From Bacteroidota bacterium (GTDB taxonomy: Bacteria; Bacteroidota; Bacteroidia; Bacteroidales; GCA-2748055), in NCBI GenBank assembly GCA_039714775.1, contig JBDLIQ010000006.1, forward strand, positions 3,695-67,694: a stretch of DNA of 64,000 nt. Reading direction: 5' to 3'. Below are positions 32,001 through 49,446 of the stretch, one piece after another. The notes below the pieces were generated by a model. That model was not told the DNA's origin, searched no databases, and saw only the letters and a list, made by a program, of their open reading frames with translations. How positions within the stretch are numbered: position 1 is the stretch's first letter; the number at the start of each line of letters is the position of its first letter. Both the position numbers and the translations under genes were made by a program.

Positions 32001-32588
32001 GTTTGCCGCAACCTGGGTGCATTTGAAACGGTCTATCCGGAGGTGAAAAACTACGAGGGAGAATTTGGGTTCGGATTAAGTAGCAGCGGAGATATGGTCA
32101 GGCTCTATACCCATGATACGGTACTGGTCGATTCGGTAAACTATGGAATTTCCAGTCCGTGGCCAACCATACCCGCCGGAAGCGGACAGACTTTGGCGCT
32201 GAACTCACCCTATGCGGACAATTCATTGGGAGAATCGTGGGAATTATCCAGTGAAAGCACGGGAACTCCAGGGCTTGATAACGCTTTCATCCCGGGTACC
32301 GGATCGGAGAGGCTGATTCATCCAGAAGATATCCTCTACCAGAACAGCCCCAATCCATTTTCGCATGAAACAAAGATCATCTTCTTCTCAGGCACCGTCC
32401 AGCATGTCAGGATCTCTGTATATGACCTGAATGGCCGGCTGGTGGAGATCCTTTCCGATCAAACCCTTGAAACCGGATACCACGAATTCAACTGGATTCC
32501 GCGGAACCGGGCTGATGGTATCTACATCCTCAGGGCAGATACCCCGGGAGAGGTGCATGTCAGTAAAATGATCAAATCATCCAGGTAG
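29043..32588 (+). CDS. CotH-family protein with two lamin-tail (LTD) domains and T9SS CTD
   Basis: 1181 aa. LTD motifs: ILINEVCASN ... DWIEILNTGPDTVNLADYCLSDD and IVINEICY ... DWLELFNNSDHYIDISEWILKDSD. CotH core: QKSMAIFARK ... IIIRNSGNDW ... AVIYINGEYWGIQNIREKVNEHFL. Chitobiase-C-like segment: GGYFPAPFQLAINAPTPGDTIYYSVDGTDPD. CTD: LYQNSPNPFSHETKIIFF ... GIYILRAD. Confidence 0.78.
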   Translation: MSRIKLIIFACVITTGISYSQILINEVCASNMSVIQDVQGDHPDWIEILNTGPDTVNLADYCLSDDPANLSKWCFPEHPIYPGEHLIIFASGKDISSSAGTWNTLINHGDAWRYILPAADLSGEWRNRGFDDSGWSAGPSGFGYGDGDDATEIPAAISIFLRKRFTLEDTSGITACILHLDYDDGFVAYINGREIARDGIMGNPPDNKSTATVGREAIMYSGGEPLPFYVNELTGLLQPGENILAIQVHNISAGSSDLTAIPFLSVLAPRQPPEPAPEILNLRGNHFHTNFKLDANGESLYLTGPGGMMVDSIEIPYIPPNHSYGRDETMQERWGVFEIPTPGEPNNTTIYDGYVDALPLFSAQGGYFPAPFQLAINAPTPGDTIYYSVDGTDPDLNSPLYQGPIEVASDMVVRARIIQTGSLPGRTLTRTFFSNSGNGLPVLCVSTDPYNLWDNENGIYVKGDNAQTSFPFFGSNFWEDWEREASIELYDEKGDSAFSLNAGIKIYGGWSRGHPQKSMAIFARKQYGTGKIKYRLFEDKEISEFESIIIRNSGNDWFGLNQESGSMFRDPLMTRLTRNMDIEHLASRQAVIYINGEYWGIQNIREKVNEHFLSSNKGVDPDNLELLESDYRVIQGDNQHYVALLDFLNSNDVMNPQNYAWIKSQMDIQNFINYQLAQIYYDNRDWPGNNIKYWRPDTPKGKWRWIMYDTDFGFGMWDKNKVYYNTLAFATDANGPGWPNPPWSTFMLRKLLRNQEFGTLFINSFADQINTSFHTESVDRQIDEMRNAILNEMSNHAVRWGGSYSNWLSRSNELKDFARLRPDIMRRHIENHFGLTEQWELGVDVSDQDAGYVHLNTIFLNDFPWSGIYFQDVPVQITAIPKTGYRFTGWSGGVVSGSPLIEIDLNSALTVTANFEIDPGDSIIPIVINEICYIQDPVSDSEDWLELFNNSDHYIDISEWILKDSDDAHFYSIKPGTLLSPHGYHVVCRNLGAFETVYPEVKNYEGEFGFGLSSSGDMVRLYTHDTVLVDSVNYGISSPWPTIPAGSGQTLALNSPYADNSLGESWELSSESTGTPGLDNAFIPGTGSERLIHPEDILYQNSPNPFSHETKIIFFSGTVQHVRISVYDLNGRLVEILSDQTLETGYHEFNWIPRNRADGIYILRADTPGEVHVSKMIKSSR

Positions 32589-32599
32589 GGGCCCATGTT

Positions 32600-35500
32600 T
32601 TAGTACATCTCAGAAGGATTCTTCCCAAACATCTTCTTAAAGGACTTGCAGAAATGGGAAGGATCGTAGAATCCCACCTTGTATGATATCTCCGAGACAG
32701 ACAACCTGTTTTCCTGAATCAGCCTGTATGCTTCATCCAGCCTGATTTTTCTTATAAATCCGGTGGTGTTCAGCCCTGTGAGTTTTTTAAGCTTGGTATG
32801 CAGGAGTGACCTGCTTACATTAGCCTCAGAGCACAGCATTTCGACATCTAACCCATTATCATCCAGGCGCCTTCGAACCGTCTCTGTCAGGTGCTTGATA
32901 AACATCTGATCCCTATTCCCCAACTGTTCAACACCCTCTGGGAATTTTTCAAAACCAGACAGATGACTACGCAGGATTTCCCGGGATCTCAGGATATTCC
33001 TCACCTGCAGATCCAGCTCCTTCAGTTTGAAAGGTTTGGACAGGTAGACATCTGCACCCCTGAACAACCCCTCTTCCCGGGATTCTGCATCGGCTTTGGA
33101 GGTCAGCAACACCACCGGGATATGAGAGGTTTCAATGGAATCCTTAACAGCATTACAAAGGGTAAATCCATCCATTTCCGGCATCATGATATCACTGATG
33201 ATCAGGTCGGGTTGGTTCTTTTTAATCCATTTCAGGGCTTTCGCCCCGTCTCCGGCGATGCTCACTTTAAAAATCCCTGAGAAGTGATGCTTTAATAAAG
33301 ATGCAAGCTCCGTATTGTCCTCCACGATCAGAAGTTCATATTTGGTACTGGAAGTGTAATCTGCAAGATCAAATTCCACTTCGGGTTCACTTTCAAGATC
33401 AAGCAAGGTGTATTGCAGGTTGACAGTAGAATGCCTTTCAATAAACTGCTCATCCTGGATCAATTCGGGTGAAGGATTCTGAACCAACGGCAATTGCACT
33501 ACCGCCATGGTCCCTCCCTCCTGTGGAGTGGAAATAATGATCTTCCCGCCCAGGTAATTCACCAGGCTTTTCACCAGTGCAAGACCGATCCCGCTTCCCG
33601 GAAATTCACCTGATTCAGAAAGCGTAAAAGGTTCAAAAAGATATTTCAGCTTATCCGGCAGAATTCCCGGTCCGTTATCTGTTACAGTGATGATCAGATC
33701 ACCAGTTATCTCCCCGGTAGGGCTTGCCAGATGACCCTTAGCTAAGATCTTGACATCCATACCGATTTCACCTGGTTTTGTGAACGATTTACAGGAATTG
33801 CTGATCAGGTTAGAGAGAATCTTCTCCAGTTTATCGGCATCGAAGTAGACGATGTAAGAACTTATATTGGATGTGAACACACCCTTCACAGAACTCTTTT
33901 CCAGAAGGGGTTGAAAAGATTCAAATGTTGATCTCAGGAAGGTAACCACATCCCCTTTATTGTATTTTATCCTGGCATGATCCGTTTCGATCTTTCTAAA
34001 ATCCATTAGTTGGTTGATCAGTACCAGCAACCGCACAGCATTTTTGCGCATCAGGATCCCGTAATCCTTTGCCACAGGCAGCAGCTGTTCATAGTTCATC
34101 AAATGTTCCAGGGTAGCAATGATCAGGGTCAGGGGAGTCTTGAATTCATGGCTTATGTAGGTAAAAAAGTTGAGGCGATGCTTGCTGATCTCCTCATTTT
34201 TCTCCTTTTCCACCCGGGCCAGACGGACGTTCAAAATCTCCCTCTGCCTGATCGTATAGAGCCGGATGGACAACAGTGTTGCCGCAACCAGAATAATGCC
34301 GTAAAGAGCAAATCCCCAGACAGATAACCAAAATGGTGGCTTCATGTACAATGAGATCGTTCTCTCCTCATCGGGCCAGGCACCTCCGCCTCCGGATGCT
34401 TTCAGGTGGAATACATAGTATCCCTGCGAAAGATTGGTGTAGGTTGCACTGCGTTGATTTCCTACATAATTCCACCCCTCTTCCAACCCCTCCAGGTAAA
34501 ATGCATATTCAGTATTTCCGGGAGAGATGTAGTTCAGCGCTACGTATTCAAAGGTCAGTACTTTGTGCTTGTGTCTCAGTCGGATATCGTCCTGAAAGTC
34601 AATACAGGTAGAGAGAATATCCGCTTCTCCAATCCTGAGTGACCTGTTGGATAGTTTAAAATCGGTAAAATGAACAACAGGCCGGTATACCATATCCTCC
34701 AGCGCCGCTGGGTCAAAATAGGTGAGACCGTTGACCGCACCGAAATAGAGCGTACCATCTGATGCGGATAATGCCGAATTAAAATTGAACTGGTTTCCTA
34801 TTAAACCGTCGTTCTCAGTAAAGTTCACAAATTCCCCGGTGACCGGATCGAACATGGAGAGTCCCCTGCCTGTGCTAATCCAGAGCATGCCCGACGAATC
34901 TTCAGTAATTGCGTACACCGTGTTATCGGGCAGTCCCTCCTCTACGGTATAGGTTGTAAAATGATCCCTTGAGTAGTCATATCTCAGCAGTCCCCCCTCC
35001 ATGGTACCGAACCAGGCCTCCCCCCGTCTGTCGAAATAGGAGAAGATAATCCGGTTACTCCGGATATCCCGGTCGCTACTCATCCTGTAGTGCGTAATCT
35101 CCATCCCCTGGTCAATCCGGTAGAAACCCTCTCCCTTTGAACAGACCCAGATATTTCCCCGGGGATCCTCTTCCACATCGTGAACAAAAATACCGCTAAA
35201 AAAATCAGACCCCCAGGTTTTAAAATCATTATCATTCTTCTCTTTCATATAGAGTCCTTCAATGGAACCCACCCAGGTGCGCTCTTGCGAATCAATATGT
35301 ATGGAGAACAGAGATTTTGAGTATACATTTTCTTCCAGCTCAGCAGGGAGGACAAGCTCGATTCTTTCAATACTCCCGTCTTTTGCATTATACCTGTGCA
35401 ATCCTCCAATAAAAGTGCCGATCCATATGTTTCCCTCCGCATCTTCTTCTAATGCATGAACATTATTGGAAGAGAGAGAGCTTGGATCCCCTGGTATATT

Positions 35501-36778
35501 CTTCAGGTATGAAAAGGTTTTCTCCCGGCGATCCAGAATAGTAATGCCTCCATCTTCGGTGGCTATCCACAATTTCCCGTCCTTTGCTTCAATCATCTCA
35601 CTAACGGCATTTCCGCTTAAACCCTCTCTGCCGCCGTCAGCATATGTTTTAAAGAAAACTTTTGGCTTCAGGCTGGTGTAGTTAGCTCCCCCGAAATAGG
35701 TTCCGATCCACATCAGGTTGTCCCGGCTCCTGAAAATAGAATATATCGCTTTATCATTCAATCCCTTCTCAAACGGATTGAAATTCTGGCCGTAGAACTG
35801 AAAAACCTCCGAAACTGGATTATATATATAAAGGCCCGATTCCGTGCCGATCCATAGACAGCCATTCATATCCTCATGGATGTCCCTGACAAAATTATCT
35901 TCGATGGGATTTACACCCTGTGGAAGCTTCAGGGAATAGAACCTGTCGGTGGAGGGATCATAATAACCCACTCCATCCCTCTTGGTACCCAGCCAGACCT
36001 TACCTCCGGAGTCTTTGAACATGCACTCAATATTTTCTGATGACATGTCAAAGTCGCCCACGTTTCCAATTGAATTCGAATATCTCCTGCTCATTTCGCC
36101 ATCGGTATTCAATACCAGAATTCCCTCGGACTCCAGGGCCCAGATAATACCGGTCCTGAATTCACAAAGCCTCCTGATATCCTGATGATCTCCCAGTTGC
36201 CTGATCTCAAGATTTTCGTTCACCCTGTAAAGTCCAGTGGAGGTAGAGATCACTACATCACCCGATGTCAGCTGAATAATGCAATCAGCATTATCAAGGC
36301 TTTCCTGCTGAAAGAGCAGTTCAATAAATGAATCTGTTGTTTTATCGTAGACACAGGCACCCGTTTGTGTTCCCACAAATAAACTTCCCCTCTCTGAAAC
36401 CAGAAGGCATCCAATAGTATTTCCCGGGAGGCCCGATATCTCCTCACGATAATATGACTTGATGGTATACCCGTCAAATCTGTTCAGTCCTACCGATGTG
36501 GCGATCCATATAAAACCCTCCTGGTCCTGGACAATATCGAGAACGGTATTATTGGTCAGTCCCTGTATGGAAGTGATCTGCTCGAACTGAAGGTTGCTAT
36601 AAACACCCCTGTCGGACGAATACAAAAGCAGCCCGGGAAACATGAACAGGAGAACCCATAATGACTTTCTGTATGACTGATAGTGATTGAACATGATATC
36701 TGCTATTCCAGACAAATGTACGAAAAGCTGAGATCGTGTACTACTTAAGGATTTTAATAAAAGGGAGTTATGAACCAA
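32600..36778 (-). CDS. Hybrid two-component system sensor kinase/response regulator with AraC-type HTH (HTCS2, paralog of HTCS1)
   Basis: Same domain order as HTCS1, with long stretches of identical sequence (for example FFTYISHEFKTPLTLIIATLEH and LLIVEDN.ELAS.LKHHFSG.FKV). The likely true start is ATG 36694 (MFNHYQSYRKSLWVLLFMFPGLLLYSS). The track start at 36778 overlaps the upstream gene. Confidence 0.9.
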   Translation of the reverse strand: MVHNSLLLKSLSSTRSQLFVHLSGIADIMFNHYQSYRKSLWVLLFMFPGLLLYSSDRGVYSNLQFEQITSIQGLTNNTVLDIVQDQEGFIWIATSVGLNRFDGYTIKSYYREEISGLPGNTIGCLLVSERGSLFVGTQTGACVYDKTTDSFIELLFQQESLDNADCIIQLTSGDVVISTSTGLYRVNENLEIRQLGDHQDIRRLCEFRTGIIWALESEGILVLNTDGEMSRRYSNSIGNVGDFDMSSENIECMFKDSGGKVWLGTKRDGVGYYDPSTDRFYSLKLPQGVNPIEDNFVRDIHEDMNGCLWIGTESGLYIYNPVSEVFQFYGQNFNPFEKGLNDKAIYSIFRSRDNLMWIGTYFGGANYTSLKPKVFFKTYADGGREGLSGNAVSEMIEAKDGKLWIATEDGGITILDRREKTFSYLKNIPGDPSSLSSNNVHALEEDAEGNIWIGTFIGGLHRYNAKDGSIERIELVLPAELEENVYSKSLFSIHIDSQERTWVGSIEGLYMKEKNDNDFKTWGSDFFSGIFVHDVEEDPRGNIWVCSKGEGFYRIDQGMEITHYRMSSDRDIRSNRIIFSYFDRRGEAWFGTMEGGLLRYDYSRDHFTTYTVEEGLPDNTVYAITEDSSGMLWISTGRGLSMFDPVTGEFVNFTENDGLIGNQFNFNSALSASDGTLYFGAVNGLTYFDPAALEDMVYRPVVHFTDFKLSNRSLRIGEADILSTCIDFQDDIRLRHKHKVLTFEYVALNYISPGNTEYAFYLEGLEEGWNYVGNQRSATYTNLSQGYYVFHLKASGGGGAWPDEERTISLYMKPPFWLSVWGFALYGIILVAATLLSIRLYTIRQREILNVRLARVEKEKNEEISKHRLNFFTYISHEFKTPLTLIIATLEHLMNYEQLLPVAKDYGILMRKNAVRLLVLINQLMDFRKIETDHARIKYNKGDVVTFLRSTFESFQPLLEKSSVKGVFTSNISSYIVYFDADKLEKILSNLISNSCKSFTKPGEIGMDVKILAKGHLASPTGEITGDLIITVTDNGPGILPDKLKYLFEPFTLSESGEFPGSGIGLALVKSLVNYLGGKIIISTPQEGGTMAVVQLPLVQNPSPELIQDEQFIERHSTVNLQYTLLDLESEPEVEFDLADYTSSTKYELLIVEDNTELASLLKHHFSGIFKVSIAGDGAKALKWIKKNQPDLIISDIMMPEMDGFTLCNAVKDSIETSHIPVVLLTSKADAESREEGLFRGADVYLSKPFKLKELDLQVRNILRSREILRSHLSGFEKFPEGVEQLGNRDQMFIKHLTETVRRRLDDNGLDVEMLCSEANVSRSLLHTKLKKLTGLNTTGFIRKIRLDEAYRLIQENRLSVSEISYKVGFYDPSHFCKSFKKMFGKNPSEMY
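36688..36721 (+). promoter_or_regulatory. Degenerate copy of the TGAAC-N4-RTAC x2 element at the HTCS2 start codon
   Basis: TGAACatgaTATCtgctattccaGACaaatGTAC. It aligns with copy A (tgatTGAAC.tga ... aaatGTAC.aaa), but half-site 1 has lost GTAC and half-site 2 has lost TGA. It points into the 3' end of a minus-strand gene, not towards a SusC gene. Confidence 0.3.
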
Positions 36779-38993
36779 TCTTAATAGTGTAATTGATAGG
36801 GAAATCAGCGTTCAATTTTGTCTCCTCTTCGTTATTATCAATGTTCTTAGTATGAAGAATTACATTCGACAGATCAGCATCTTTATACTCCTCCATATCC
36901 ACGAAAAGATCTGCTTCTTTACCATTATCAGAGACAGACAGTTTTAAACTTAAAACACCAAAATGAGTTAATACACCATTTAGCTCTGTTTTCATTCCCG
37001 GATTGGTCCACTCTTTTGGCAACCCTTCGAACAGGTGCAATTCACCTCCTCTTTCCAGAGCAATCAGATGCCTGACCAAACGTATAAACTCTGCACTGGC
37101 CCAGTTGTGTGGCATATCGCCAACGGGGGAAAAGTCTGATGTTTTTACACTTTGCTCTTCTCTCCAGGCCAATGTAGGTGAAACGTGGTTAGCCATAGCA
37201 TATAGCTTTTTTACGGCCTCATCTCCCTTGTGATTCCACAATAGTGCATGTCCCATAAACGAAGGGAAATAGTTCCAGACACCATCATTGTGCCATCCGG
37301 TATTGTATGTTAATCCCTCTCTTTCTACAGCTTTCAGCATTTTCATATTGGCTTTAACCAGGTCATCATCTTCGGGATAGATCTTTCCCGGGAAGATCGA
37401 ATGCAGAAATGCCCATTGCGCCTTTTGTGGTAATACATTGTCCGGGTCTTCCATTCTGACAGGAAGGTAATCATTACCAAACTCATCGACTTTCATATCC
37501 CTTTCAGCTGCTTTTCGGAAAAGAGCATAAAACTCGTCATACTCCTTTTGCCACTTATCAGCAGTCGATTCCTTATTCAGCCACTTTGCACTTTCTATTG
37601 CAGCTTTCATTCCGTTCAATGACCAATAAATATTTGTGTATTCCGGAAACAGACCCCAGAGACCCCCATCGCTGTTTCCTGCCGGAATAAGTCCATAGTT
37701 AGGTGCATCTGTATCAACACTTGCTCTTGTACGCATTGTATCGATATAATCAAATGCTCTCTCCATTTTACTCCAGTTGGACTCTAGCCACTCTTTATCA
37801 CCTGTTAGTTTTGCGTGGTTCGACACAGCCCAGAGAACAATACCTGTCTCTTTCCAGTGGTCTTTAATCATTTCGAAAGAACCATCGGCATTCTGGTAAC
37901 CCATAAGGTACTCTATACCATTCCGGACATCTCTCTTTTGATCCAGAAAAGTCATAGATTCTAATAAGAAAGCACCATCAACAACCCATAAACCTCTGTA
38001 AACAGTGGGTCCAACCTGGAAAGATAACATCCCATTATCATTTTCGCGAGCCTGGAAAATATTTCTGACAGATGAGTTAACAATATTTTGAATACCCTGA
38101 TCGGGAACCGAAATCTTATTATAAGGAAGATCCAGATTTGCCCAGTAATTATTCGAACTCTGTTTAAGAGATTCAGCCTGTTCAACACTGTTTGGAACAA
38201 TTACAGGATCTTGTCCGGCGTTTACTCCGTAAGTAAATGACTGCTCTTCTCCCGGTTTTAGTTCTATTTGATCAAGTGTAAGTGTATAATAGAATGCCTC
38301 TACACTGTCTTTAAAGACTTTAAGTTTTTTCGAATGAACCTTTGAATCAACAATTTTTTGAGAAAACTTAACCTTCAGGTGCTCTCCAATATTGACAAAA
38401 TATCCATCCAGTTCAGCCTCAAAATTGTATACTGTATTGATGTGCATCACAGGAGAGAAGACGATTGTTTCTTCTCCATTGTTTACATATTTCACTATAC
38501 TAATATCATTTCTCGGAGCTCCGATAATTGAATCGTTGGAGTTATAATCTCTTTGGGCTTTAACTCCGAGATATTGATTCTCCTCATTGCTAAGTTTGTC
38601 GACAAATGCAGGAGCAACAGTGAAACTGCTCTGCTGAATCTGCAAACTGTTTGATTCAAACAGTGTTTCTACTATCGGAATTTTCGGAGATGCTATTTGT
38701 TGATCTTTCCATTGGCAGGTTTCAGGAAGCTGTAAATAAAATTCTGTCCTGAAGCCTCTGAAAGGTCCGTGTTTATCTCTCTTTGCCAATACCCTTACAA
38801 AATCGTAATACATCTGACCCTCCTTTCCAACAACAGTTTTCATGTGGTCATCGGGCAGACCAATGGCAGTCTGCCACCATTCGGGTGCGTACTCCAGATT
38901 GACTTCCAATCCATTATATTCTGTCGGGTTTTGAGTACAGGCACCACCTGCAATTATAGCAATGATGAGCAGTAATGTATTTCGATAAGTCAT
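36768..38993 (-). CDS. Lipoprotein with putative (alpha/alpha)6-barrel glycosidase-like C-terminal domain; family unknown
   Basis: 741 aa. Lipobox IIAGGACTQ. N-terminal ~300 aa look like a beta-sandwich. The C-terminal half has helical-hairpin-type segments (YRGLWVVDGAFLLESMTFLD, NADGSFEMIKDHWKETGIVLWAVSNHAKLTGDKEWLE, GLIPAGNSDGGLWGL, YWSLNGMKAAIESAKWL). No CAZy family is recognisable by eye. Confidence 0.45.
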   Translation of the reverse strand: MTYRNTLLLIIAIIAGGACTQNPTEYNGLEVNLEYAPEWWQTAIGLPDDHMKTVVGKEGQMYYDFVRVLAKRDKHGPFRGFRTEFYLQLPETCQWKDQQIASPKIPIVETLFESNSLQIQQSSFTVAPAFVDKLSNEENQYLGVKAQRDYNSNDSIIGAPRNDISIVKYVNNGEETIVFSPVMHINTVYNFEAELDGYFVNIGEHLKVKFSQKIVDSKVHSKKLKVFKDSVEAFYYTLTLDQIELKPGEEQSFTYGVNAGQDPVIVPNSVEQAESLKQSSNNYWANLDLPYNKISVPDQGIQNIVNSSVRNIFQARENDNGMLSFQVGPTVYRGLWVVDGAFLLESMTFLDQKRDVRNGIEYLMGYQNADGSFEMIKDHWKETGIVLWAVSNHAKLTGDKEWLESNWSKMERAFDYIDTMRTRASVDTDAPNYGLIPAGNSDGGLWGLFPEYTNIYWSLNGMKAAIESAKWLNKESTADKWQKEYDEFYALFRKAAERDMKVDEFGNDYLPVRMEDPDNVLPQKAQWAFLHSIFPGKIYPEDDDLVKANMKMLKAVEREGLTYNTGWHNDGVWNYFPSFMGHALLWNHKGDEAVKKLYAMANHVSPTLAWREEQSVKTSDFSPVGDMPHNWASAEFIRLVRHLIALERGGELHLFEGLPKEWTNPGMKTELNGVLTHFGVLSLKLSVSDNGKEADLFVDMEEYKDADLSNVILHTKNIDNNEEETKLNADFPINYTIKIGS

Positions 38994-39041
38994 ATGGCTA
39001 ATATATATTTAATTGACAAAATGTTACATTCATTTATGTGT

Positions 39042-42000
39042 CTATGGATCAAACTCAATCATGGTTCTATAACTCCCATCCCGGCGAAAAAAGTCGCCCG
39101 GAGTGATATTGTCTTTCACACCTGGGGTGTATACAAATTCGACAATGCCGTTCCATTTTGCAGTGTGAACTTTGCCATCGGCATCAATACAGATACCATA
39201 ATTGGCGTTGTCCTCAAAATGGCCTGTATATGCCAAAGTAGCCGCATCAAAAAGGTGGATCCCTCCATTGTGGACAACCCACATTCCATCTGCACCAATT
39301 TCGATATCGTTGACAGAACCGGTGGTACGGGAAAAACCTAAATCGGTGTAATTTTGGTTATTTTCATGATATACCATGTTGTTCACACCATCAAATTTGC
39401 CGTACCGGATAACATCATCATCACCCACGTAAACCGCACTTCCCGAGTGGTAAGCGCCTCCCTGAAACGCCTGTTGCACAAAGGTCCCACCGGAAAATGT
39501 CCAGGTGGAGAGCCCCTCGCTCTGGGCCACATGGATGTATCCTTTTGAATCGACCGCAATATCCATTGCATTCACAGAACCGTGGTGTCCCATATTCGTG
39601 TAGGTGCCGTCCGCATAGGTCCAGCTGTCAAGACCGCCCTCATTGTTTCTGGAAGTATAGATGGTGCCATCCGGCGCTATCGCCATGCCGGTTGCATCGG
39701 AGAAACTGGTGCTGCCATCCTCTGCAAATGTACCGGTGGATGCATTGTAGCTGAAAAAGGTGAGTCCGGTGGCACTGAGCAGATGCATTCCACCCGGAAC
39801 AGATGCCATCTCCACAACATCTGCAGGAGATCCCCATCCTCCCACAATGGAATAGGCAGATCCATTGTGTTCAAGTGCAGCAACTCCACCGGTATGCCCG
39901 GCAAACAGATGCGTCCTGTCATCATTTGCAAACAGGGGGGAGTCATGATCAGGGTCTCCGATGGAAACATGGAAGGAGGTTGTATCCGTCCATAAAACAA
40001 CTGCCGAACCACATAAGGAGCTGATATCCCAGTTGCCATGATACGCATAACTTACACGGAAACTATACTGATATCCTTCCGGCAGATCTGCAATATTCAG
40101 CCAGCTCATCTCACTGGTACCAACAGGTGTAAAATAGAATCCTCTGAGATCGGTATAACTGCTGAATCCGAGCTCATCAGCTCCAAGGAAACAGCTCCCG
40201 CTGCCATATCCCGGAATCTCAACAATCTCATGATCATCCTGAAGAATCTCTATTCTGTTTTCATAGTTTCCAGGACTATCCCACGACAGATGAATTCCCT
40301 CCTCAACAGCTCCATCGATCCGGAAATGTTGACTCGTTCTGCGATTGTATCCTGTTTTGAAACTTTGAGAACTTGTCCATGAATCGGAAGAGTAACTCAG
40401 TTGAAATCCATCAAGATCTTTAAACTCATCAATGGAGATCATCTCATTATTTCCGGGATAGGTTTCGCTCACAAATTCAATCGCCTCCAGGTTCCAGCTT
40501 GTACTGCTCCCCAGAACTCCTGCATTCAGCTGAGCATAACCCATACCGAAGGCACCCGGATTGGTCGGATGCTCAATAAGCAGCTCTCCGTCAACCAGAG
40601 CATTAAGGTGATATTCATAATCCCCGGGATCGGTCCAGCTTAACTGAATAGCCGATGGGATACGGTGTGGATCAATCTGCATCGTAGGCTTCTGCTTCAA
40701 CGGTACAATGGTTCCATCGGGGTTGAAAGAGAGCTTGCTGTAATGCGGTCTTCTCCCCTGATAATTACCCAGATGATCAAATGTGCCTATCCCGTAGAAC
40801 ATGAACATCTCGCCGTTACGCTTTGTAACAGCTCTCCCCGAACCTCCTATTTCTCTTAGTCCCGGTGTATGAAACGGCACATCTCCCAGATTTGGGTAGG
40901 CCTCATATAGTTTATGCTCCTCTCCAATGCCGCGCGCTATGGTTTCAAAACTATCACCAATAAAGTAACTCATGCTGTAGTTGCCAACCACATGACCATG
41001 GGTAAATATGAAGTAATACTTACCCTCTTTTTTAAATGCAGTTGCATTTTCGTTTATTCCCTGTTCTCCTGCAACCGGATTGCTGTTTTGTACAATATTG
41101 ATGGGTTCGTGCCATATCTTCTTTGCATCGGAAGGATCGTCAAATCTGAAATCATCGGCTATTCTTGCAGAAGCGATGTGGTTACCCTGTTCGAACCAGA
41201 CCCAGTAATACCATCGTTCTCCTTCAATTTCAAAAATATCGCCATTCAGATGTATTCCGTTTATCTGGCCACCTGCCGGTGCACTCCACGACTGATGAGT
41301 GCGTGGCATACCTCCCTGAACTACAAGCTGCGTTCCCAGATTAGTACCAATATCCACATTTACCACATAGGCATTAATCATACGGGGATAGCCTTCCCAT
41401 TCAAAATCGCCATTGCTGTTTTTGTACGCCATCTGGTAGAACTGGGTCTGAATTTCAACATTATTATCTGTTGCCCATTGGGCGCTTTTTCCTTCGGGAA
41501 CTCTGGCTGCTGCAAAGGTTAAGACGTACTTATCGCCCTCTCTGATTGCCAGTTGTCCTCCCACATAGTAATAATCGAAACGGGGATCCTGGACACTTGG
41601 ATCAAAAGTTGCTTTGTATTTAAAATCGAAGTCTTCTCCATTTGACGGATACATGGGCGATTCGTAAATATCCAATTTATTATAATTGTGCGTATGTCCC
41701 ACACCATAAATTGTCTCACCGTCATCAACAACCACAAAATCACCGTTAACATGGTGATCACCATGGGTAAGAGAGCTACGGGGCAGTTCCGTGCGTGTTG
41801 TAGCATCAACTTTGGTCGCCAGATAACTGATTTTACGGGCTTCACTTACAGTATACATGTAGTACCGGTCCGGTTCGTTCTTAAATTTCAGACAGACCCT
41901 GTTTTCTGTTCCGTAATACCCGGGTGGTGTGGCAATTACAAAAGCCTCTCTCAACTGAGACAACCATTCAACCGGGCAGATAATATCATATGGCAACTTC

Positions 42001-42113
42001 TGTGCATCTGAACATAAATCGGCATCAGCCCCTGTCATAACATCCACTCCCAAAAGGGTACCCGACATTACAATGGATAGCAGAAAACCAATGATTATCA
42101 TTTTTAATCCCAT
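39042..42113 (-). CDS. Large secreted multi-domain protein: GH43-like propeller segment plus C-terminal LVIVD/lactonase-like propeller; function unknown
   Basis: 1023 aa with a signal peptide and no T9SS CTD. The middle resembles clan GH-F blades (INENATAFKKEGKYYFIFTHGH, GGSGRAVTKRNGEMFMFYGIG, FEIEGERWYYWVWFE). The C-terminal ~330 aa carry repeated blade motifs (ATGMAIAPDGTIYTS..GGLDSWTYADGTY; AMDIAVDSKGYIHVAQSEGLSTWTFSGGTF; VNDIEIGADGMWVVHNGGIHLFDAATLAY). Confidence 0.5.
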   Translation of the reverse strand: MGLKMIIIGFLLSIVMSGTLLGVDVMTGADADLCSDAQKLPYDIICPVEWLSQLREAFVIATPPGYYGTENRVCLKFKNEPDRYYMYTVSEARKISYLATKVDATTRTELPRSSLTHGDHHVNGDFVVVDDGETIYGVGHTHNYNKLDIYESPMYPSNGEDFDFKYKATFDPSVQDPRFDYYYVGGQLAIREGDKYVLTFAAARVPEGKSAQWATDNNVEIQTQFYQMAYKNSNGDFEWEGYPRMINAYVVNVDIGTNLGTQLVVQGGMPRTHQSWSAPAGGQINGIHLNGDIFEIEGERWYYWVWFEQGNHIASARIADDFRFDDPSDAKKIWHEPINIVQNSNPVAGEQGINENATAFKKEGKYYFIFTHGHVVGNYSMSYFIGDSFETIARGIGEEHKLYEAYPNLGDVPFHTPGLREIGGSGRAVTKRNGEMFMFYGIGTFDHLGNYQGRRPHYSKLSFNPDGTIVPLKQKPTMQIDPHRIPSAIQLSWTDPGDYEYHLNALVDGELLIEHPTNPGAFGMGYAQLNAGVLGSSTSWNLEAIEFVSETYPGNNEMISIDEFKDLDGFQLSYSSDSWTSSQSFKTGYNRRTSQHFRIDGAVEEGIHLSWDSPGNYENRIEILQDDHEIVEIPGYGSGSCFLGADELGFSSYTDLRGFYFTPVGTSEMSWLNIADLPEGYQYSFRVSYAYHGNWDISSLCGSAVVLWTDTTSFHVSIGDPDHDSPLFANDDRTHLFAGHTGGVAALEHNGSAYSIVGGWGSPADVVEMASVPGGMHLLSATGLTFFSYNASTGTFAEDGSTSFSDATGMAIAPDGTIYTSRNNEGGLDSWTYADGTYTNMGHHGSVNAMDIAVDSKGYIHVAQSEGLSTWTFSGGTFVQQAFQGGAYHSGSAVYVGDDDVIRYGKFDGVNNMVYHENNQNYTDLGFSRTTGSVNDIEIGADGMWVVHNGGIHLFDAATLAYTGHFEDNANYGICIDADGKVHTAKWNGIVEFVYTPGVKDNITPGDFFRRDGSYRTMIEFDP

Positions 42114-42122
42114 CTCCGGATC

Positions 42123-43193
42123 TTACAATTTGATTATTTTTCCCAGCGGGGTATTATTTGATACAACAATATAAATACCCGAACTCAAAGTTGATATATC
42201 GATCTTCCTATTTGGATAGATGGTTCCGCTTAAAACCATTTCTCCACCGATACCATAGATCGTAAATGGCATAGGTGTGCTAATGTTTGCTGCGTATATA
42301 TAGTTGAGGGATGGATTTGGGTAAAAAGAAAACTCTTCAACACATAAATCACTGCTACCTAAAACAAGCGTTCCAAGTACAGAGATCTTTTTCCCGTAAT
42401 TCTCTGTGATTAACAGGTTCTCACCTAAAAATGCAATGTCGGTGGGTCCGTTTAATCCGCTTACAACATCAACTGCAACCTGTGGACCATTTAAAATATC
42501 GACTTTAGATATTTTATTCTCATTTTTTACAGCTATATACAACAAATCATCCTGAATTTTAAGCCCTATGGGGGCTCCAAGTTCGCTTACAACAGTATTT
42601 GGAACAGGCAGATCACTCGAAATATCAATTTTCGACACCCTGTTTCCTTCAGTTTCTGAAACATACAGATCGTTCCCATTTAAAGCCAGTGAACTTGGAA
42701 AACTCAGCCCTTCCACAACAATTTCGGGCGTGTAGGATGAATTGCCAATATCAATTCTGGATATTGTACCTGCCTGACTCTCGGTGTAATACAGATAGTG
42801 GTCATGGATTGCCAAACCATTCGGCAACCTTAAATCGCTTAATGCATCAACAAGCGTTGGTGAATTGTCTGACAGATCAATTCTGGATATCTTATTATCG
42901 TAAGCAATTGCAATGTACAGTTCATCTCCATAAAGAGCCATACTGCTTGGGTCATGAATTCCGTTTACTACATCAACCGGGGTTGGTGTGTAACTTGAAA
43001 GCCTGACTTTACACAGTTTATTGCTGGTTTGTTCGGTAAAATAGAGATAATTCTCCACCACAAACAGCCTGTTTGGCTGGCTTGAGGTTCTCTGTACAAC
43101 ATCCGTGGTCTGGGCCACAGCGACCATACAGCTTAAGATGAAGAAAAGTACCAGATTAGATGCCTTGCCCATAGAAAAAATATTAAGTCTCAA
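42123..43193 (-). CDS. Six-bladed beta-propeller (YWTD/NHL-like) protein with T9SS CTD
   Basis: Six repeats of the form [YLYFTEQTSNKLCKVRL / ELYIAIAYDNKISRIDL / YLYYTESQAGTISRIDI / DLYVSETEGNRVSKIDI / LLYIAVKNENKISKVDI / NLLITENYGKKISVLG]. CTD: FSFYPNPSLNYIY ... GIYIVVSNN ... KIIKL. The track start is TTG 43193. ATG 43172 (MGKASNLVLFFILSCMVAVAQ) is more likely. Confidence 0.65.
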   Translation of the reverse strand: MRLNIFSMGKASNLVLFFILSCMVAVAQTTDVVQRTSSQPNRLFVVENYLYFTEQTSNKLCKVRLSSYTPTPVDVVNGIHDPSSMALYGDELYIAIAYDNKISRIDLSDNSPTLVDALSDLRLPNGLAIHDHYLYYTESQAGTISRIDIGNSSYTPEIVVEGLSFPSSLALNGNDLYVSETEGNRVSKIDISSDLPVPNTVVSELGAPIGLKIQDDLLYIAVKNENKISKVDILNGPQVAVDVVSGLNGPTDIAFLGENLLITENYGKKISVLGTLVLGSSDLCVEEFSFYPNPSLNYIYAANISTPMPFTIYGIGGEMVLSGTIYPNRKIDISTLSSGIYIVVSNNTPLGKIIKL

Positions 43194-43199
43194 ACGCAG

Positions 43200-43230
43200 A
43201 AAAAGTCACTGCCGGAAAGCCGGCAGTGAC
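43200..43230 (-). terminator. Rho-independent terminator closing the SusC-SusD-LamG cassette of PUL-B
   Basis: Minus strand: GTCACTGCCGGctttCCGGCAGTGAC, a perfect 11-bp stem, followed by TTTTT. It lies 27 nt after the LamG2 stop. Confidence 0.75.
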
Positions 43231-43256
43231 CCATGCTTACTTAAAAAACCCACCGA

Positions 43257-44195
43257 CTATTGAACGACAACTTTTGCTGAATAGTCAAGCACTTTCACTA
43301 CATACAACCCTGCACCCAGTGAGATATCGCCAATTTTCGAAACAGGCTTCTCTGCAACCAGTTTACCTGCTATATCAAATACCGAAACCTGCTCATCACC
43401 CAATGAACCAGCAACATCAACAACAATCCTGTTATAACGGGTATAGATGTTTGGGGTTTGTCCATTGCTGATATGATCACTGATACCGAGTGTTCCATCA
43501 AAGAGTTTGCCCACTTCATCAGCTGAAAGCGCCCTTTTAAAAACCTGCAGATCACTCAATGCACCATTGAAGGGGATATCATCATCCCACATACTTCTCG
43601 GAAGCATATTCTGACTATCATCTATTGTGCTGAAATTTCTGGTAGCAGCCTCCATAAGAATCTCAACACCATCCTGATACCCTCTTATTTCATCAGCTGT
43701 AAGTACGATGACCGAGTGATGCCATACCTCATATTTAATCGTATCAACAGCCGTAATAGCATGAGCCCATGGCCATGGCGGAACCCCACCTTCGGGTGAC
43801 AAATAAAACTGAGTTTTATTCATATCTAAAACCAGGGTCATATGGTCCTTGGGCTCAACGGCCCCATGTCCGGCACCGTCATCGAATCCATTACCAATAG
43901 ACCAGAGACGCCCTAATCCTGCACCTACATCACACCTGAACCATAAAGAGATAGTTACTTCATCAAGGCCGTTAACGAAAGAGGGGAGACTGATATAACT
44001 ATCTGTTCCATCAAAATATGCTACATCTCCCTTATTAACATCAGTAATAAAAGTGACATTGCCTACTAATGTCCCGTTTAATCCAGCCACGATTTCATCT
44101 GCATTCGCCTGCAGCGGCCAGTGATAATCCTGTGCGAACAGTGCTTGCCCACATACTAAAAACATTCCGGCTAAAAGTAGAGTTGTTTTTTTCAT
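43257..44195 (-). CDS. LamG/concanavalin-like lectin-domain protein with T9SS CTD (paralog of 17627-18586)
   Basis: 312 aa. The N-terminus is collinear with the PUL-A protein (MKK...AQDYHWPLQ vs MKK...AQDHHWPLE; GDVAYFDGTDSYISLPSFVNG vs GDVCYFNGEGYANLPSFING; GALSDLQVFKRALSADEV vs GALSDLRVWNSALTYEEV). CTD: VSVFDIAGKLVAEKPV ... GLYVVKV. Confidence 0.7.
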   Translation of the reverse strand: MKKTTLLLAGMFLVCGQALFAQDYHWPLQANADEIVAGLNGTLVGNVTFITDVNKGDVAYFDGTDSYISLPSFVNGLDEVTISLWFRCDVGAGLGRLWSIGNGFDDGAGHGAVEPKDHMTLVLDMNKTQFYLSPEGGVPPWPWAHAITAVDTIKYEVWHHSVIVLTADEIRGYQDGVEILMEAATRNFSTIDDSQNMLPRSMWDDDIPFNGALSDLQVFKRALSADEVGKLFDGTLGISDHISNGQTPNIYTRYNRIVVDVAGSLGDEQVSVFDIAGKLVAEKPVSKIGDISLGAGLYVVKVLDYSAKVVVQ

Positions 44196-44293
44196 AATTA
44201 ATTGGTTTTGAATTAATAATAGGTTTTAGTAAAAAAAATTGATATAACAGTAATATGCTAATCTCTAAACACTCAACAGGACTTCATTGACCA

Positions 44294-46153
44294 CTACCAG
44301 TTAAGATTCTGAACCAGGTTGGGATTCTCGTGAAGATCGGTTGTTGCTATTGGCCACAGGTAATCCCTGGGTACAACAAAATTCCGTGTCTGAACCACCT
44401 CCTTGATCTGGTTATACTCTTCCAGTGTAGCGCCTGTTACAGTGAGCCCCTTCAGGTCCTCGTTAAACTCTTCGCCCCTTTTCCATCTTCTGACATCCCA
44501 GATCCTGTGGCCCTCGAAAGCAAGTTCAATCTCTCTTTCTGTCTGAATTATTTCGCGTAATCCCTCCTTGGTAGTGGGTATGCTGGGATCAATCGCAGAG
44601 GTCCACGCCTGGTTAACCCCCGGGATACCCGCCCTGGAGCGAACCTGATCCAGGTAATAGATCGCATCGTTACCCTCATCATCGGTTGTGCCATGTCCGT
44701 ATTCATTCAATGCCTCGGCCAGGTCAAGATAGAGCTCAGAGAGCCTGAGAAGCGGCCAGGCATAGAATTTCAATTTATAATTGGCAGCAGTCAGGCTCGA
44801 TTTTGGATGGACTCCCTTTTTTACCATATAACCGGTTAAGGAGTGGTTCATCTTCTGACCTTCATAACCAAACCCGTCGATCTCCTCATACCTGAGCTGT
44901 ATAAGATGTTCCTCTTCACTTGCCAGGAAAGTACCCCTGTCAAATCCAATGTTCGCATAGAAACGGGGTTCCCTGCCCCTGTTCATGCTCAGGGTACTGT
45001 CTCCCGGGGTAACAGTATAACGGTTTGCGTAGTCAAAAGCGGGATCCTGGTCCATGGGCAATCCATTTTCAGTAAGGTATATTTCAGCCTGGTTAAATGT
45101 AGCGGCCAGGGTGCCGAGCCCTCCATGCCTGCTACCCTGGATATCGCGGGGGCCACACCATTTCTGATGGCTCCACCAGGTATCTTCCCTTCGGCTGTAA
45201 CCCCAGATAAGCTCACTGTTCCAGGCCTCTACCATGGTATATTTGCAATTTTTCATGGCAATCTCAAAATCATTGTCGCCTGTCTGCTCCCTGTAGAGTG
45301 TATAACCCTGACCTTCTGCTTCATCGATGGCCTCTTTCAGCGCATCTGCTGCCCTCTTCCATTTTTCGGCATCATAGCTCGCCGGAAACAGGGTTGTTCC
45401 GTCCGGTCCGGCTACTCCAGCATAATCGGGATTGCCGTTAAAGAGGGGACTTGCGGCATACATCAGCAACCTCCCTTTTAATCCTTTCGCAATGGATTTG
45501 GTAATTCTTCCCAGGTAGGTATCCTGATGCTGGGCCGCCAGCATCGGGTACGCTTCATCCAGCTTCTGAACAATAAAATCAACACACTCATCATAGGGGA
45601 CACGCTGCGGATAGTACTCCTCCTCAGGGGCATCAAAGGGAATAACCCTTCTTACAAGTACAATGGGTCCATATTGCCGCAAGGCAATATAATGAAGGTA
45701 TGCGATGATAAAGGTCGCTTCTCCCTCCATTTCGGTAATCTCCTTCGCGGTAAAACCCGGTGTATCTTCTATATGCTCAAGGAATATATAGGCCTGCCTG
45801 ATCCCTTCGTAGACGGACAAACATACAGCTCCGCCTCCATGAGCTCCTCCTCCGCTCCAGTAGTTAAAGAGAACGTGACTCGGGTTACTTTCACCTTTAA
45901 CCAACCGGTAAGCTGTCTGGTTATCAAAGGGGACAGCCACCTCGTCGGACCCCCACAGATCGGGAACAGAAACTGCATCACCAGATCGTGGTGTGTAAGC
46001 ATACAGTGAGTAGAGGAATCGTTCTGCCTCCTGTTTCCGGGAGAAGGCATCCTCAACCGTAGCTGTATCATCAGGAACTATATCTAAATAGTCGCAGGCT
46101 GAAAGGCCGAATATCACTAAAAGTAGAGCGGTATATTTATATGTCCGTTTCAT
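44294..46153 (-). CDS. SusD/RagB-family lipoprotein (PUL-B)
   Basis: 619 aa. Lipobox GLSACDY. Directly downstream of SusC (11-nt gap). C-terminal WPIATTDLHENPNLVQNLNW is typical of the family. Confidence 0.88.
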   Translation of the reverse strand: MKRTYKYTALLLVIFGLSACDYLDIVPDDTATVEDAFSRKQEAERFLYSLYAYTPRSGDAVSVPDLWGSDEVAVPFDNQTAYRLVKGESNPSHVLFNYWSGGGAHGGGAVCLSVYEGIRQAYIFLEHIEDTPGFTAKEITEMEGEATFIIAYLHYIALRQYGPIVLVRRVIPFDAPEEEYYPQRVPYDECVDFIVQKLDEAYPMLAAQHQDTYLGRITKSIAKGLKGRLLMYAASPLFNGNPDYAGVAGPDGTTLFPASYDAEKWKRAADALKEAIDEAEGQGYTLYREQTGDNDFEIAMKNCKYTMVEAWNSELIWGYSRREDTWWSHQKWCGPRDIQGSRHGGLGTLAATFNQAEIYLTENGLPMDQDPAFDYANRYTVTPGDSTLSMNRGREPRFYANIGFDRGTFLASEEEHLIQLRYEEIDGFGYEGQKMNHSLTGYMVKKGVHPKSSLTAANYKLKFYAWPLLRLSELYLDLAEALNEYGHGTTDDEGNDAIYYLDQVRSRAGIPGVNQAWTSAIDPSIPTTKEGLREIIQTEREIELAFEGHRIWDVRRWKRGEEFNEDLKGLTVTGATLEEYNQIKEVVQTRNFVVPRDYLWPIATTDLHENPNLVQNLNW

Positions 46154-46164
46154 ATCTTCAATTA

Positions 46165-49100: not shown

Positions 49101-49332
49101 TTGTTCCGGTGGTTGTACCCTTTACGAAGATGTTTGCACCAGGAATTTCGATCCCTTCCGCATCCCGGACGGTACCCGTAATCTCTATACCGGCTTTCCG
49201 GAGTTCATTTGAGGAACTCTCCTCTGAAGGATTTGCTGAAGCATATGAATACCCAGCCAACAAAAGGAATAGAATAAAGTGTGACTTTACTATTCTCTTT
49301 CTCAAAAACTGCGGACAATAAAATCGATTCAT
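46165..49332 (-). CDS. SusC/RagA-family TonB-dependent transporter (PUL-B)
   Basis: 1055 aa. CarboxypepD_reg-like domain (ITGTVRDAEGIEIPGANIFVKGTTTGTITDMNGYYSIEV). Plug (ELVVVGFGKQKK, FWIRGVSTFG, ILKDASATALYGARGANGVILIVTKDG). C-terminal ...IGAQFNF. Confidence 0.92.
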   Translation of the reverse strand: MNRFYCPQFLRKRIVKSHFILFLLLAGYSYASANPSEESSSNELRKAGIEITGTVRDAEGIEIPGANIFVKGTTTGTITDMNGYYSIEVPDESATLVFSFIGYATQEVVVGSRTVINVEMAVDAAGIEELVVVGFGKQKKISVTGAITAVNPDILKTPSSSLSSSFAGRMPGVIAVQRSGEPGQDGSDFWIRGVSTFGAGSSNNPLIFLDGVQISNADLNALDPSIIENFTILKDASATALYGARGANGVILIVTKDGIASDKPMVSVRVESSLKSPTMLPEYSDAVTFMEMSNEARFNSNPERPLEYTQQKIDGTMQGLDPYLFPNVDWMSTVFKDYATHQYANVNIRGGSEKVQYFTSVSYTDDTGLMREGPDNDNNINFKRFNLQNNLTYDLSNSTKLDVRINTNFDSNNRPWMWSTHLYQLVLRSNPVNFPVTFPDEEGVDHIKFGSKPGGDGLALPNPYASLVRGYVGERSTTLLGLAKLTQDIKWVEGLSAEVMVSVKNYANSGFTRLYEPFYYMVDESSITETDGVYDYDVVMMGQGGNTALNFGSWSAGRNSAVYIQSSINYNKSFGKHDIQSMLVYNQNDFRDNNAGSFYSALPYRNQGLAARISYMYDNRYMLETNMGYTGSENFAPDHRFGFFPSISVGYAISNEKFFQETLGSLFSVMKIRASYGLAGNDQAGGIIRRFPYRSSVDLNYSGLNHSFGSDFNNWANGVVINTYENVDVTWEISHKANVGIDLEMRNGLILTADLFRDYRTGILLQRSIVPTTLGAGAALPLANSGELVNRGIDIALNYNKAVTSDLIITAMGTFTFARNEVLAADEPPGFEENYPHLSKVGKPVNTMWGYDAEYIFSDQEDVDNSAFQSFGGYGVGDLKFRDVTGDGIVDMNDLIPLGAPYLPEITYGFGFSIQYKKFDFSTFFQGIGRLSMGVGGGMHPFSIETESNVMTFIADDYWSPGVNEDPYATYPRVTEDRNDNNRQFNSWWLRKGSFMRWKDAEFGYRISKMIRVYLQGQNMLTFSDFKLWDPEMLSPDGASYPPQRNILIGAQFNF

Positions 49333-49408
49333 AATTGTATCAGTTGAAATTAAGTTGGTTGTATCTCTTTTTACTTATGTGCAAGATACAGAACAGATCA
49401 TCTGGCTT

Positions 49409-49446
49409 TTTTGTACAGTTGTCCAGATTCTTAGTATCCATGTTCA
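49409..49446 (-). promoter_or_regulatory. Candidate AraC/HTCS operator, copy C: TGAACatggATAC-N8-TGGACaactGTACaaaa
   Basis: Read on the minus strand. Repeat starts are 21 nt apart. The element ends 80 nt before the SusC ATG (49332) and lies 36 nt after the CotH2 stop. Confidence 0.55.

Follow-up and report, generated by a model that had tools for sequence, protein, structure and literature searches.

We analyzed a 64,000-nucleotide (nt) stretch of a marine Bacteroidales genome (GenBank assembly GCA_039714775.1, contig JBDLIQ010000006.1, positions 3,695 to 67,694 of the forward strand; hereafter the window, in whose numbering all positions are given), focusing on a block of three adjacent genes located between a terminator-like hairpin and the gene of HTCS2, a hybrid two-component sensor/regulator. 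The block encodes a 741-amino-acid (aa) lipoprotein, a 1023-aa multidomain protein and a secreted propeller protein of 349 aa. A preceding description made from the DNA letters and their open reading frames (ORFs), termed here the sequence-only reading, had reported three minus-strand genes with gaps of 48 nt (741-aa/1023-aa genes) and 9 nt (1023-aa/propeller genes) behind the hairpin, and all of these features were confirmed. The block and its immediate neighbors are as follows.

36768-38993, minus strand: gene of the 741-aa lipoprotein (ORF list).
39042-42113, minus strand: gene of the 1023-aa protein (ORF list).
40674-42113, minus strand: N-terminal 480 residues of the 1023-aa protein, comprising a signal peptide, an extension of ~100 residues and a divergent five-bladed propeller resembling glycoside hydrolase (GH) family 43 (GH43).
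39042-40673, minus strand: C-terminal 543 residues of the same protein, comprising a middle region (481-720) and a repeat-rich region (721-1023).
42123-43193, minus strand: propeller gene, 356 aa when read from TTG; the probable start is the ATG at 43172, giving 349 aa.
43200-43232, minus strand: terminator-like hairpin (13-bp stem, CUUU loop) followed by a T-run, located after the LamG312 stop (43257) and before the propeller ATG (43172).
43257-44195, minus strand: LamG312, a Laminin_G_3 protein following SusD2 (Pfam, E 1.9e-18).
44294-46153, minus strand: SusD2 (Pfam).
46165-49332, minus strand: SusC2 (Pfam).
32600-36694, minus strand: HTCS2 (Pfam), directly downstream of the 741-aa gene.

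These genes form one string on a single strand (SusC2-SusD2-LamG312-hairpin-propeller-1023 aa-741 aa, then HTCS2) with SusC2/SusD2 as the uptake pair at its head. The string as a whole thus combines an adjacent SusC/SusD pair with linked enzymes and a regulator, all encoded in the same orientation, as is characteristic of a polysaccharide utilization locus (PUL), and is referred to as PUL-B. LamG312, which carries a weak type IX secretion system (T9SS) tail, is probably a surface glycan-binding protein.

The 741-aa protein starts with a lipoprotein signal (ending ...IAGGAC), and its AlphaFold2 (AF2) model (predicted local distance difference test, pLDDT, 89.3; predicted template modeling score, pTM, 0.91) consists of an N-terminal beta-sandwich (residues ~40-260), an (alpha/alpha)6 barrel (~270-645) and a C-terminal beta-sandwich. 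Foldseek matched this model to GH94, GH116 (including ExoMA2, an exo-beta-D-arabinanase/exo-beta-D-arabinofuranosidase; PDB 8ic6), GH15, GH78, GH65, GH63, GH52 and GH95 at E values of 4e-17 to 5e-12, with a template modeling (TM) score of about 0.5 and 9-13% identity; in total, 127 PDB matches were obtained at E<=1e-3, and the top 50 were all GH or glycoside phosphorylase (GP) enzymes, with no lyases or epimerases among them. At the sequence level, only faint echoes of these families were detected, i.e., 15.9 bits for Bac_rhamnosid6H (threshold 24.5) and 22.5 bits for TIGR01577, a GH15-type 'oligosaccharide amylase' model (threshold 820), and no sequence relative was retrieved from the PDB, whether the query was the single sequence or a 50-sequence profile. 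Likewise, weak sub-threshold matches to Bac_rhamnosid6H were the sole Pfam matches among family members (12/50). The protein thus shares its domain order with the six-hairpin GHs and phosphorylases, as represented by the eight families named above, from which it differs in that it matches no curated family and, unlike the cytoplasmic phosphorylases, is an extracytoplasmic lipoprotein.

The family to which this protein belongs comprises 1156 homologue clusters at E<=1e-3; among GTDB representatives it occurs at no fewer than 571 loci, mostly from Planctomycetota and Verrucomicrobiota with some from Bacteroidota. Its cultured carriers include Maribellus luteus, with homologue WP_119436297, Arenibacter sp. 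F26102, with WP_246999782, and Flavihumibacter petaseus, with WP_046369258; in all three the RefSeq label is 'hypothetical protein'. Approximately 100 alignment columns are invariant across the family, many of them Asp, Glu, His or Arg residues of the barrel, and the invariant acidic barrel residues of the 741-aa protein are D339, E382, D442, E451, E557, E612, D626 and E635. Given its predicted fold, we regard the 741-aa protein as a putative glycoside hydrolase. Known GH94 and GH65 phosphorylases are cytoplasmic, whereas the 741-aa protein is exported and lipid-anchored, which makes hydrolysis a more probable activity than phosphorolysis. Four genomes of the same genus (G017, G018, G019 and G021; loci L003-L006) lack the 741-aa family and carry proteins of 880-930 aa that are 21-24% identical to the barrel region; one of these (910 aa) had no Pfam match when scanned, and they may constitute a second uncurated six-hairpin family.

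Residues 1-480 of the 1023-aa protein were modeled by AF2 as a five-bladed beta-propeller (pLDDT 92.6), for which the top 50 Foldseek matches in the PDB were all GH43 (E values down to 3e-12, TM [target] 0.6-0.68, identity 12-14%). The Pfam GH43 model (PF04616) aligned to residues 276-469 only and scored 26.9 bits, under its gathering threshold of 32.2, and NCBIfam gave no GH43 match for the protein. In an alignment of 31 sequences, D125 (general base, GD[PF] motif) and E355 (general acid, NE motif before the YYF strand) are invariant, sitting in GDP-like and NE(A/G)P-like motifs. The canonical third (pKa-modulating) Asp, which is part of RID in distant homologues, is N290 here, and D292 follows two residues later; as the closest homologues read HLNGD and the next clade reads HLDGN, a carboxylate appears to be retained nearby. 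We read this pattern as a relocation of the third GH43 carboxylate by two residues (D292), with inactivation as the alternative, and assign residues 1-480 as the putative catalytic domain on the basis of the model.

This GH43-like domain is rare. An exhaustive HMMER search over 1.84 billion proteins (representatives) returned only 41 sequences with E<=1e-3, of which 8 had E<1e-30. One of the eight closest relatives of the domain is labeled Verrucomicrobiota, and the domain was found in 0/400 evenly drawn Bacteroidota genomes and in 0/40 relatives. One homologue, P0125, is 50% identical over 97% of the query and keeps the entire 1023-aa architecture; its genome probably belongs to the Planctomycetota-Verrucomicrobiota (PVC) group, as judged by N_methyl prepilin-like genes. 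With respect to the C-terminal part, the middle region (481-720) contains two similar LSW(T/D)xPG(D/N)YE-type modules, as read from the sequence, and residues 481-1023 have no Pfam match. The only PDB sequence match of this part was a weak one to the WD40 domain of ATG16L1 (E 5e-6), and this match, together with the repeats discernible in residues 721-1023, suggests that the latter region is probably a second beta-propeller. The 1023-aa protein lacks a T9SS domain.

Compared to GH43 (clan GH-F; inverting alpha-L-arabinofuranosidases, beta-xylosidases, arabinanases and beta-1,3-galactosidases), the 1023-aa protein therefore has the five-bladed propeller, the Asp base and the Glu acid in common, whereas its low identity, sub-threshold Pfam score, ~100-residue N-terminal extension, Asn290/Asp292 arrangement, tiny clade and fusion to two unclassified modules plus a second propeller-like region set it apart. 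Some of these differences, i.e., Asn290 at the canonical third position and the Pfam score under threshold, would also fit an alternative in which the block encodes mainly non-catalytic binding or structural surface proteins, with the GH43-like domain as a degenerate lectin-like propeller and the 741-aa protein as a binder, or as a non-hydrolase built on a six-hairpin scaffold, such as a phosphorylase, an epimerase or a lyase. The same can be said of the GH94 phosphorylases as best structural matches of the 741-aa protein, of its unassigned catalytic residues, and of the two further propeller-like modules that bear no enzymatic signature. However, no variation occurs at the Asp base or the Glu acid across 31 diverse homologues, and a carboxylate is kept at +2, which looks like an active site under selection; the 741-aa family retains its ~100 invariant columns with their many Asp, Glu, His and Arg barrel residues; a lipoprotein outside the cytoplasm is unlikely to be a phosphorylase; and lyases and epimerases were not among the top 50 fold matches. 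We consider this alternative to be unlikely.

The third protein of the block is, judged from its sequence, a secreted six-bladed YWTD/NHL-type beta-propeller. It contains six repeats ending LY(I/V/F)(A/T/S), and its PDB sequence matches are LRP4 (E 3e-14), the PknD sensor (1e-11) and LRP6 (2e-9). At residues 291-347, TIGR04183 (Por_Secre_tail) detected a T9SS type A sorting domain with 30.5 bits (cut-off 23), the Pfam counterpart PF18962 falling just under its cut-off (25.9 versus 27). A hydrophobic N-terminus directly follows the ATG at 43172, so that the protein has both the signal peptide and the C-terminal domain (CTD) of T9SS type A cargo. Its relatives are ~350-aa proteins with a T9SS type A sorting domain from marine Flavobacteriia (best identity 51%), the genera including Aequorivita, Lacinutrix, Winogradskyella and Kordia. 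The protein displayed no catalytic signature, and we suppose that it acts as a surface binding or accessory protein.

None of the three proteins thus reaches a Pfam or NCBIfam family threshold as an enzyme or falls in a curated GH family, in line with the sequence-only reading, which had been unable to assign any of them. Its labels for two of them also proved apt, namely, 'six-bladed propeller with CTD' (YWTD/NHL repeats plus a T9SS sorting domain) and 'alpha/alpha-barrel-like lipoprotein' (the AF2 barrel plus the lipoprotein signal). Its suggestion that the block could harbor new glycan-active activities is made plausible by the folds and by the conserved GH43 catalytic Asp/Glu, and it is credible that both larger proteins are new glycan-active enzymes outside curated families.

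To place the block within its genome (4.06 Mb in 217 contigs, 49.5% GC; window GC 47.5%), we compared its genes to 1809 long ORFs of the same genome, in which the mean GC is 0.506 and the mean GC at third codon positions (GC3) is 0.591, with a standard deviation (SD) of 0.077. The values obtained, with percentiles among these ORFs, are as follows.

741-aa gene: GC 0.403; GC3 0.368 (percentile 2.2); codon-usage distance at percentile 97.2.
Propeller gene: GC 0.398; GC3 0.374 (percentile 2.4); codon-usage distance at percentile 96.7.
LamG312: GC3 0.361 (percentile 1.7); codon-usage distance at percentile 97.8.
1023-aa gene: GC 0.463; GC3 0.443 (percentile 5.4); codon-usage distance at percentile 83.6.
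HTCS2: GC3 0.522 (percentile 15.0); codon-usage distance at percentile 10.8.
SusD2: GC3 0.518 (percentile 13.9); codon-usage distance at percentile 63.0.
SusC2: GC3 0.498 (percentile 9.9); codon-usage distance at percentile 43.1.

The mosaic composition that had been suspected from hand counts is therefore borne out by GC, GC3 and codon usage, the hand counts having been right in direction. SusD2 and SusC2 are ordinary genes of this genome in their codon usage. As for the low-GC block that these counts had suggested, the 741-aa and propeller genes are indeed atypical, whereas the atypical tract begins upstream of the hairpin: LamG312 is equally atypical, which shows that the compositional boundary is not at the hairpin. 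In PUL-A, the other PUL of the window, the GH172 gene (23661-26765) is also atypical (GC3 0.395, 3rd percentile; codon-usage distance at the 89th percentile), and its neighbors GH62b and GH43_rel are of typical composition.

Low GC need not be foreign, as a mutational bias acting locally, or one linked to expression, could also lower it in accessory genes that are weakly expressed and long resident; the whole window lies under the genome mean, mobile-element scars are absent and the 1023-aa gene is just mildly atypical. Nevertheless, a GC3 of 0.36-0.37 is ~2.9 SD under the genome mean, while adjacent locus genes reach 0.50-0.52, and the low-GC genes have their nearest relatives on contigs, or in taxa, that are themselves low in GC (37-38% GC for the contigs with the closest relatives of the 741-aa protein). 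Furthermore, the genes occur in no congener, and we hold such a bias to be very unlikely as the explanation. As the contigs carrying relatives of the 1023-aa protein have 44-56% GC, the pattern fits different donors, and we infer that the 741-aa gene, the propeller gene and LamG312 came from low-GC Bacteroidota and the GH43-like domain from outside the phylum.

The distribution of the genes among relatives was examined in 24 same-genus and 16 same-order genomes. The 741-aa gene was found in 0/24 of the former and in 1/16 of the latter (at 49% identity), and the 1023-aa gene in 0/40; the presence/absence check that had been recommended thus found the block to be missing from all 24 same-genus genomes. 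Similarly, SusD2 has no orthologue in the 24 congeners, HTCS2 has none in relatives (best outside match 31-39%), and the GH43_rel gene of PUL-A has none in the relatives examined. Thus, the whole two-PUL region is accessory, rather than the block alone. Composition is not homogeneous, the proteins belong to no well-characterized families, and the block is not conserved in this position, these being the three points on which the sequence-only reading had offered to be proven wrong.

Only two public runs contain the region, both of them DNA from a marine metagenome. In the run that covers it best, a single Logan contig extends over 38686-44347, and read depth is flat at 19-29x over 32000-51900; this continuity and even depth make assembly chimerism unlikely. 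The second run, at 1-5x, is too shallow to judge strain-level absence. At 36746-38686, the assembly of the best-covering run is fragmented, with short contigs and numerous variant positions within the 741-aa gene and clean assembly on either side. This points to microdiversity at the strain level or to another close homologue being present in the sample.

We then considered the hairpin, which reads GGGTCACTGCCGG-CTTT-CCGGCAGTGACTT plus a T-run on the minus strand (43232-43200) and is separated from the ATG at 43172 by 27 nt. Within a 76-nt stretch it folds with -29 kcal/mol (z = -3.7), and 0/200 shuffles fold as well. It has no second copy in the genome, and it was detected by direct folding, a consensus terminator scan not having listed it. 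A counterpart exists in PUL-A. The features of PUL-A that bear on the argument, and the two CotH proteins of the window, are the following.

8723-12862: HTCS1, the sensor of PUL-A.
18601-18642, plus strand: hairpin followed by T8, right after LamG319 (-25 kcal/mol, z = -5).
21477-22574, plus strand: GH5-like gene.
23661-26765: GH172/DUF2961 T9SS protein of 1034 aa.
27970-28998, plus strand: GH43-related gene (PF22847-type, GH43_rel).
29043-32588 and 49482-51764: the CotH proteins of the window, CotH1181 and CotH760, respectively.

PUL-A, with enzymes of the GH43, GH5-like, GH62 and GH172 families, is ordered SusC1-SusD1-LamG319, hairpin, enzyme operon, i.e., according to the plan of PUL-B. Because the same LamG-hairpin-enzymes layout occurs in both, the hairpin looks internal to the locus rather than being its end. 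We propose that it is a partial terminator inside one transcription unit and that HTCS2 is expressed separately. A precedent is a flavobacterial alginate utilization locus, in which Rho-independent terminators inside the locus, multiple promoters and read-through have been documented (PMC7641319). In the PUL-B intergenic regions, the sole exact TAnnTTTG motif (TACATTTG, 36720-36713) lies 26 nt upstream of the HTCS2 ATG (36694-36692), within the 73-nt gap to the 741-aa gene, and HTCS2 probably has its own promoter. No exact motif of this type precedes any of the three block genes, including the interval between hairpin and ATG.

A different arrangement would be that of an independently acquired and independently transcribed islet, lodged between a complete PUL-B cassette with a true terminator and HTCS2, without a functional tie to PUL-B. 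The strong hairpin with its T-run, the atypical codon usage of the 741-aa and propeller genes, the lack of the block in congeners and the occurrence of propeller homologues alone in unrelated contexts are all compatible with such an islet. On the other hand, LamG312 on the cassette side is equally atypical, PUL-A has the same hairpin before its enzyme operon, merely 27 nt without a promoter motif precede the first gene, and SusD2 and HTCS2 likewise have no congener orthologues. Moreover, both enzymes co-occur elsewhere with PUL-A families (see below), and insertion scars were not found. An islet is therefore improbable, and the earlier view of the block as wedged in behind a cassette terminator was not supported, given the layout of PUL-A, the composition of LamG312, the accessory nature of the whole two-PUL region and the shared PUL-A partner families.

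The two PULs are related unevenly: HTCS1 and HTCS2 are 67% identical, compared to 27% for the SusC pair and 35% for LamG312 versus LamG319. Neither regulator has a closer relative in 25 related genomes, and their SusC/SusD partners are only 27-31% identical, which points to a regulator duplication within this lineage, each copy being paired with a different transporter.

Homologue contexts link the block to its surroundings. The closest orthologue of the 741-aa protein, P0004 (68% identity; locus L011, on a Bacteroidota contig of 37% GC), lies in a PUL ordered SusC, SusD, orthologue, GH172, 373-aa protein, aldose epimerase, GH43_rel, GH127, esterase, GPI/cupin protein, major facilitator superfamily (MFS) transporter and ROK kinase. 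In this locus, the 373-aa protein, two positions after the orthologue, is 63-68% identical to the GH5-like gene of the window (21477-22574), and GH43_rel is 65% identical to 27970-28998. Homologues of the 1023-aa protein show the same company, as GH5-like genes (43-49% identical to 21477-22574) adjoin or lie near them in L012, L021 and L022, GH43_rel (63% identical to 27970-28998) is the gene after them in L021 and L022, and GH172 and a GH43+LamG protein lie near another in L020. Thus, the two block enzymes have partner families in common, and these are also found in PUL-A, which ties the block functionally to its surroundings. The GH43-related and GH5-like partner proteins of PUL-A have no PDB sequence relative. 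The set of 1023-aa-type protein, GH43_rel and GH5-like protein occupies 4243-11191 in L021, 1042-7990 in L022 and 10001-14874 in L012. The GC content of these contigs is 44-51%, and one or more of them probably derive from the PVC group, judging by N_methyl prepilin-like genes.

For the 741-aa family at large, the same-strand neighbors of 59 loci are mostly carbohydrate enzymes and transporters, with GH2 (4), GH31 (2), GH127 (2) and GHL10 (2) as well as GH92, GH130, sugar transporters and a sulfatase. Across 80 GTDB loci of the family, the PUL-A families do not recur, only GH127-like (4), SusC (4) and CotH (1) being found, so that a tight association with PUL-A families is confined to the closest orthologue. 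Genes of the URO-D family (uroporphyrinogen decarboxylase-like) occur near homologues of the 741-aa or 1023-aa protein in L012 (983-2347), L014 (18309-19394) and L016 (16372-17556), in most cases accompanied by an MFS sugar transporter and by a regulator of the LacI or AraC type, and twice among the 59 direct neighbors.

With regard to the substrate, GH62, GH127 and GH43 are known as arabinofuranosidase families, and GH172 includes exo-alpha-D-arabinofuranosidases (bioRxiv 10.1101/2022.07.22.500997). The partner set GH172/GH62/GH127/GH43 would thus point to a furanoside-rich glycan. Mycobacterial-type D-arabinan was considered as a specific candidate and set aside, as DUF4185/GH183 was not detected in the genome, a weak negative given that control genomes were silent too.

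CotH proteins also occur at loci of this kind. A T9SS CotH protein lies upstream of the block on the same strand, together with LamG312, SusD2 and SusC2. In a Bacteroidales genome of the same order and a different family (L018, G029:C5, 6361-14388), a homologue of the 741-aa protein (747 aa, 47% identity) lies between two T9SS CotH proteins, one of 1176 aa with LTD-CotH-LTD-CTD architecture (37% identical to CotH1181) and one of 734 aa (41% identical to CotH760), with no SusC/D nearby. As the trio of CotH protein, six-hairpin protein and CotH protein is thus seen in two families, the CotH proteins may belong to the glycan system. Literature searches for members of the 741-aa family by accession, and for CotH in PULs, yielded nothing relevant.

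Taken together, we consider it reasonably probable that the block is an accessory, horizontally assembled enzyme tail of PUL-B in this marine Bacteroidales species and that it is directed at the same glycan as PUL-A or at a related, furanoside-rich one. According to this model, transcription from the SusC2 promoter would be partly halted at 43200-43232, leaving the uptake and binding proteins in excess while a fraction reads through into the three genes. The T9SS propeller would reach the cell surface and serve there in binding or as an accessory protein. The GH43-like propeller of the 1023-aa protein, the evidence for which comprises its fold and the conservation of D125/E355, would remove a terminal sugar with inversion, probably a furanoside or pentoside, and the C-terminal modules would hold the glycan. 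The 741-aa lipoprotein, for which the predicted fold is the evidence, would hydrolyze the remaining oligosaccharide, probably by inversion as in most six-hairpin families. The product would then be sensed by HTCS2, which follows the block and would be expressed from its own promoter.

Several observations weigh against this enzyme-tail model. Asn290 at the canonical Asp site could mean that the GH43-like domain is weak or inactive. In the 741-aa protein, no catalytic residues are assignable, and its best structural matches are GH94 phosphorylases at a TM of only about 0.5. The 741-aa family at 40-56% identity occurs in very varied contexts with no dominant partner, so the specificity suggested by L011 is not transferable with confidence. 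Propeller homologues were not in PULs in the two contexts examined. In terms of expression, the hairpin at 43200-43232 is strong enough for a full terminator; the region upstream of SusC2 is also devoid of an exact TAnnTTTG, which leaves the promoter-motif test with little power. Finally, the window contains no tRNA genes, meaningful flanking repeats, transposase or integrase as traces of horizontal assembly.

A bolder version of the enzyme-tail model can be offered only tentatively. It holds that the 741-aa family is a large unrecognized GH family and the 1023-aa protein a member of a rare GH43-like clade with a relocated carboxylate, and that these, with GH5-like, GH43-related and GH172 proteins (plus T9SS CotH proteins in Bacteroidales), form a recurring cross-phylum set for a furanoside-rich marine or microbial glycan, the pathway of which is undescribed.

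In comparison with known systems, the locus resembles HTCS-type Bacteroidota PULs in its SusC/SusD pair, post-SusD binding protein, enzymes and HTCS, and in its GH172, GH43, GH5-like and GH127 partners, and it differs from them in having enzymes outside curated families, T9SS cargo and CotH-family proteins. Closest among these are the furanoside-directed examples, such as the D-arabinan PUL of D. gadei with its GH172 enzymes (bioRxiv 10.1101/2022.07.22.500997) and the GH172/GH116/GH183 set of Microbacterium (PMC10509167). Nothing in the block is mechanistically unprecedented, and it provides two good biochemical targets. This matters because new GH families are still found mainly via unannotated PUL genes. 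The 741-aa family is a widespread six-hairpin family without a Pfam or NCBIfam model or a solved relative, and its cultured carriers allow direct assay; the altered catalytic triad of the GH43-like clade bears on general-acid tuning in clan GH-F enzymes. The recurring partnership of GH172, GH127, GH43-related and GH5-like proteins narrows the substrate search to furanoside-containing glycans. For the organism itself, the locus shows a marine Bacteroidales species building a PUL from parts of different origin.

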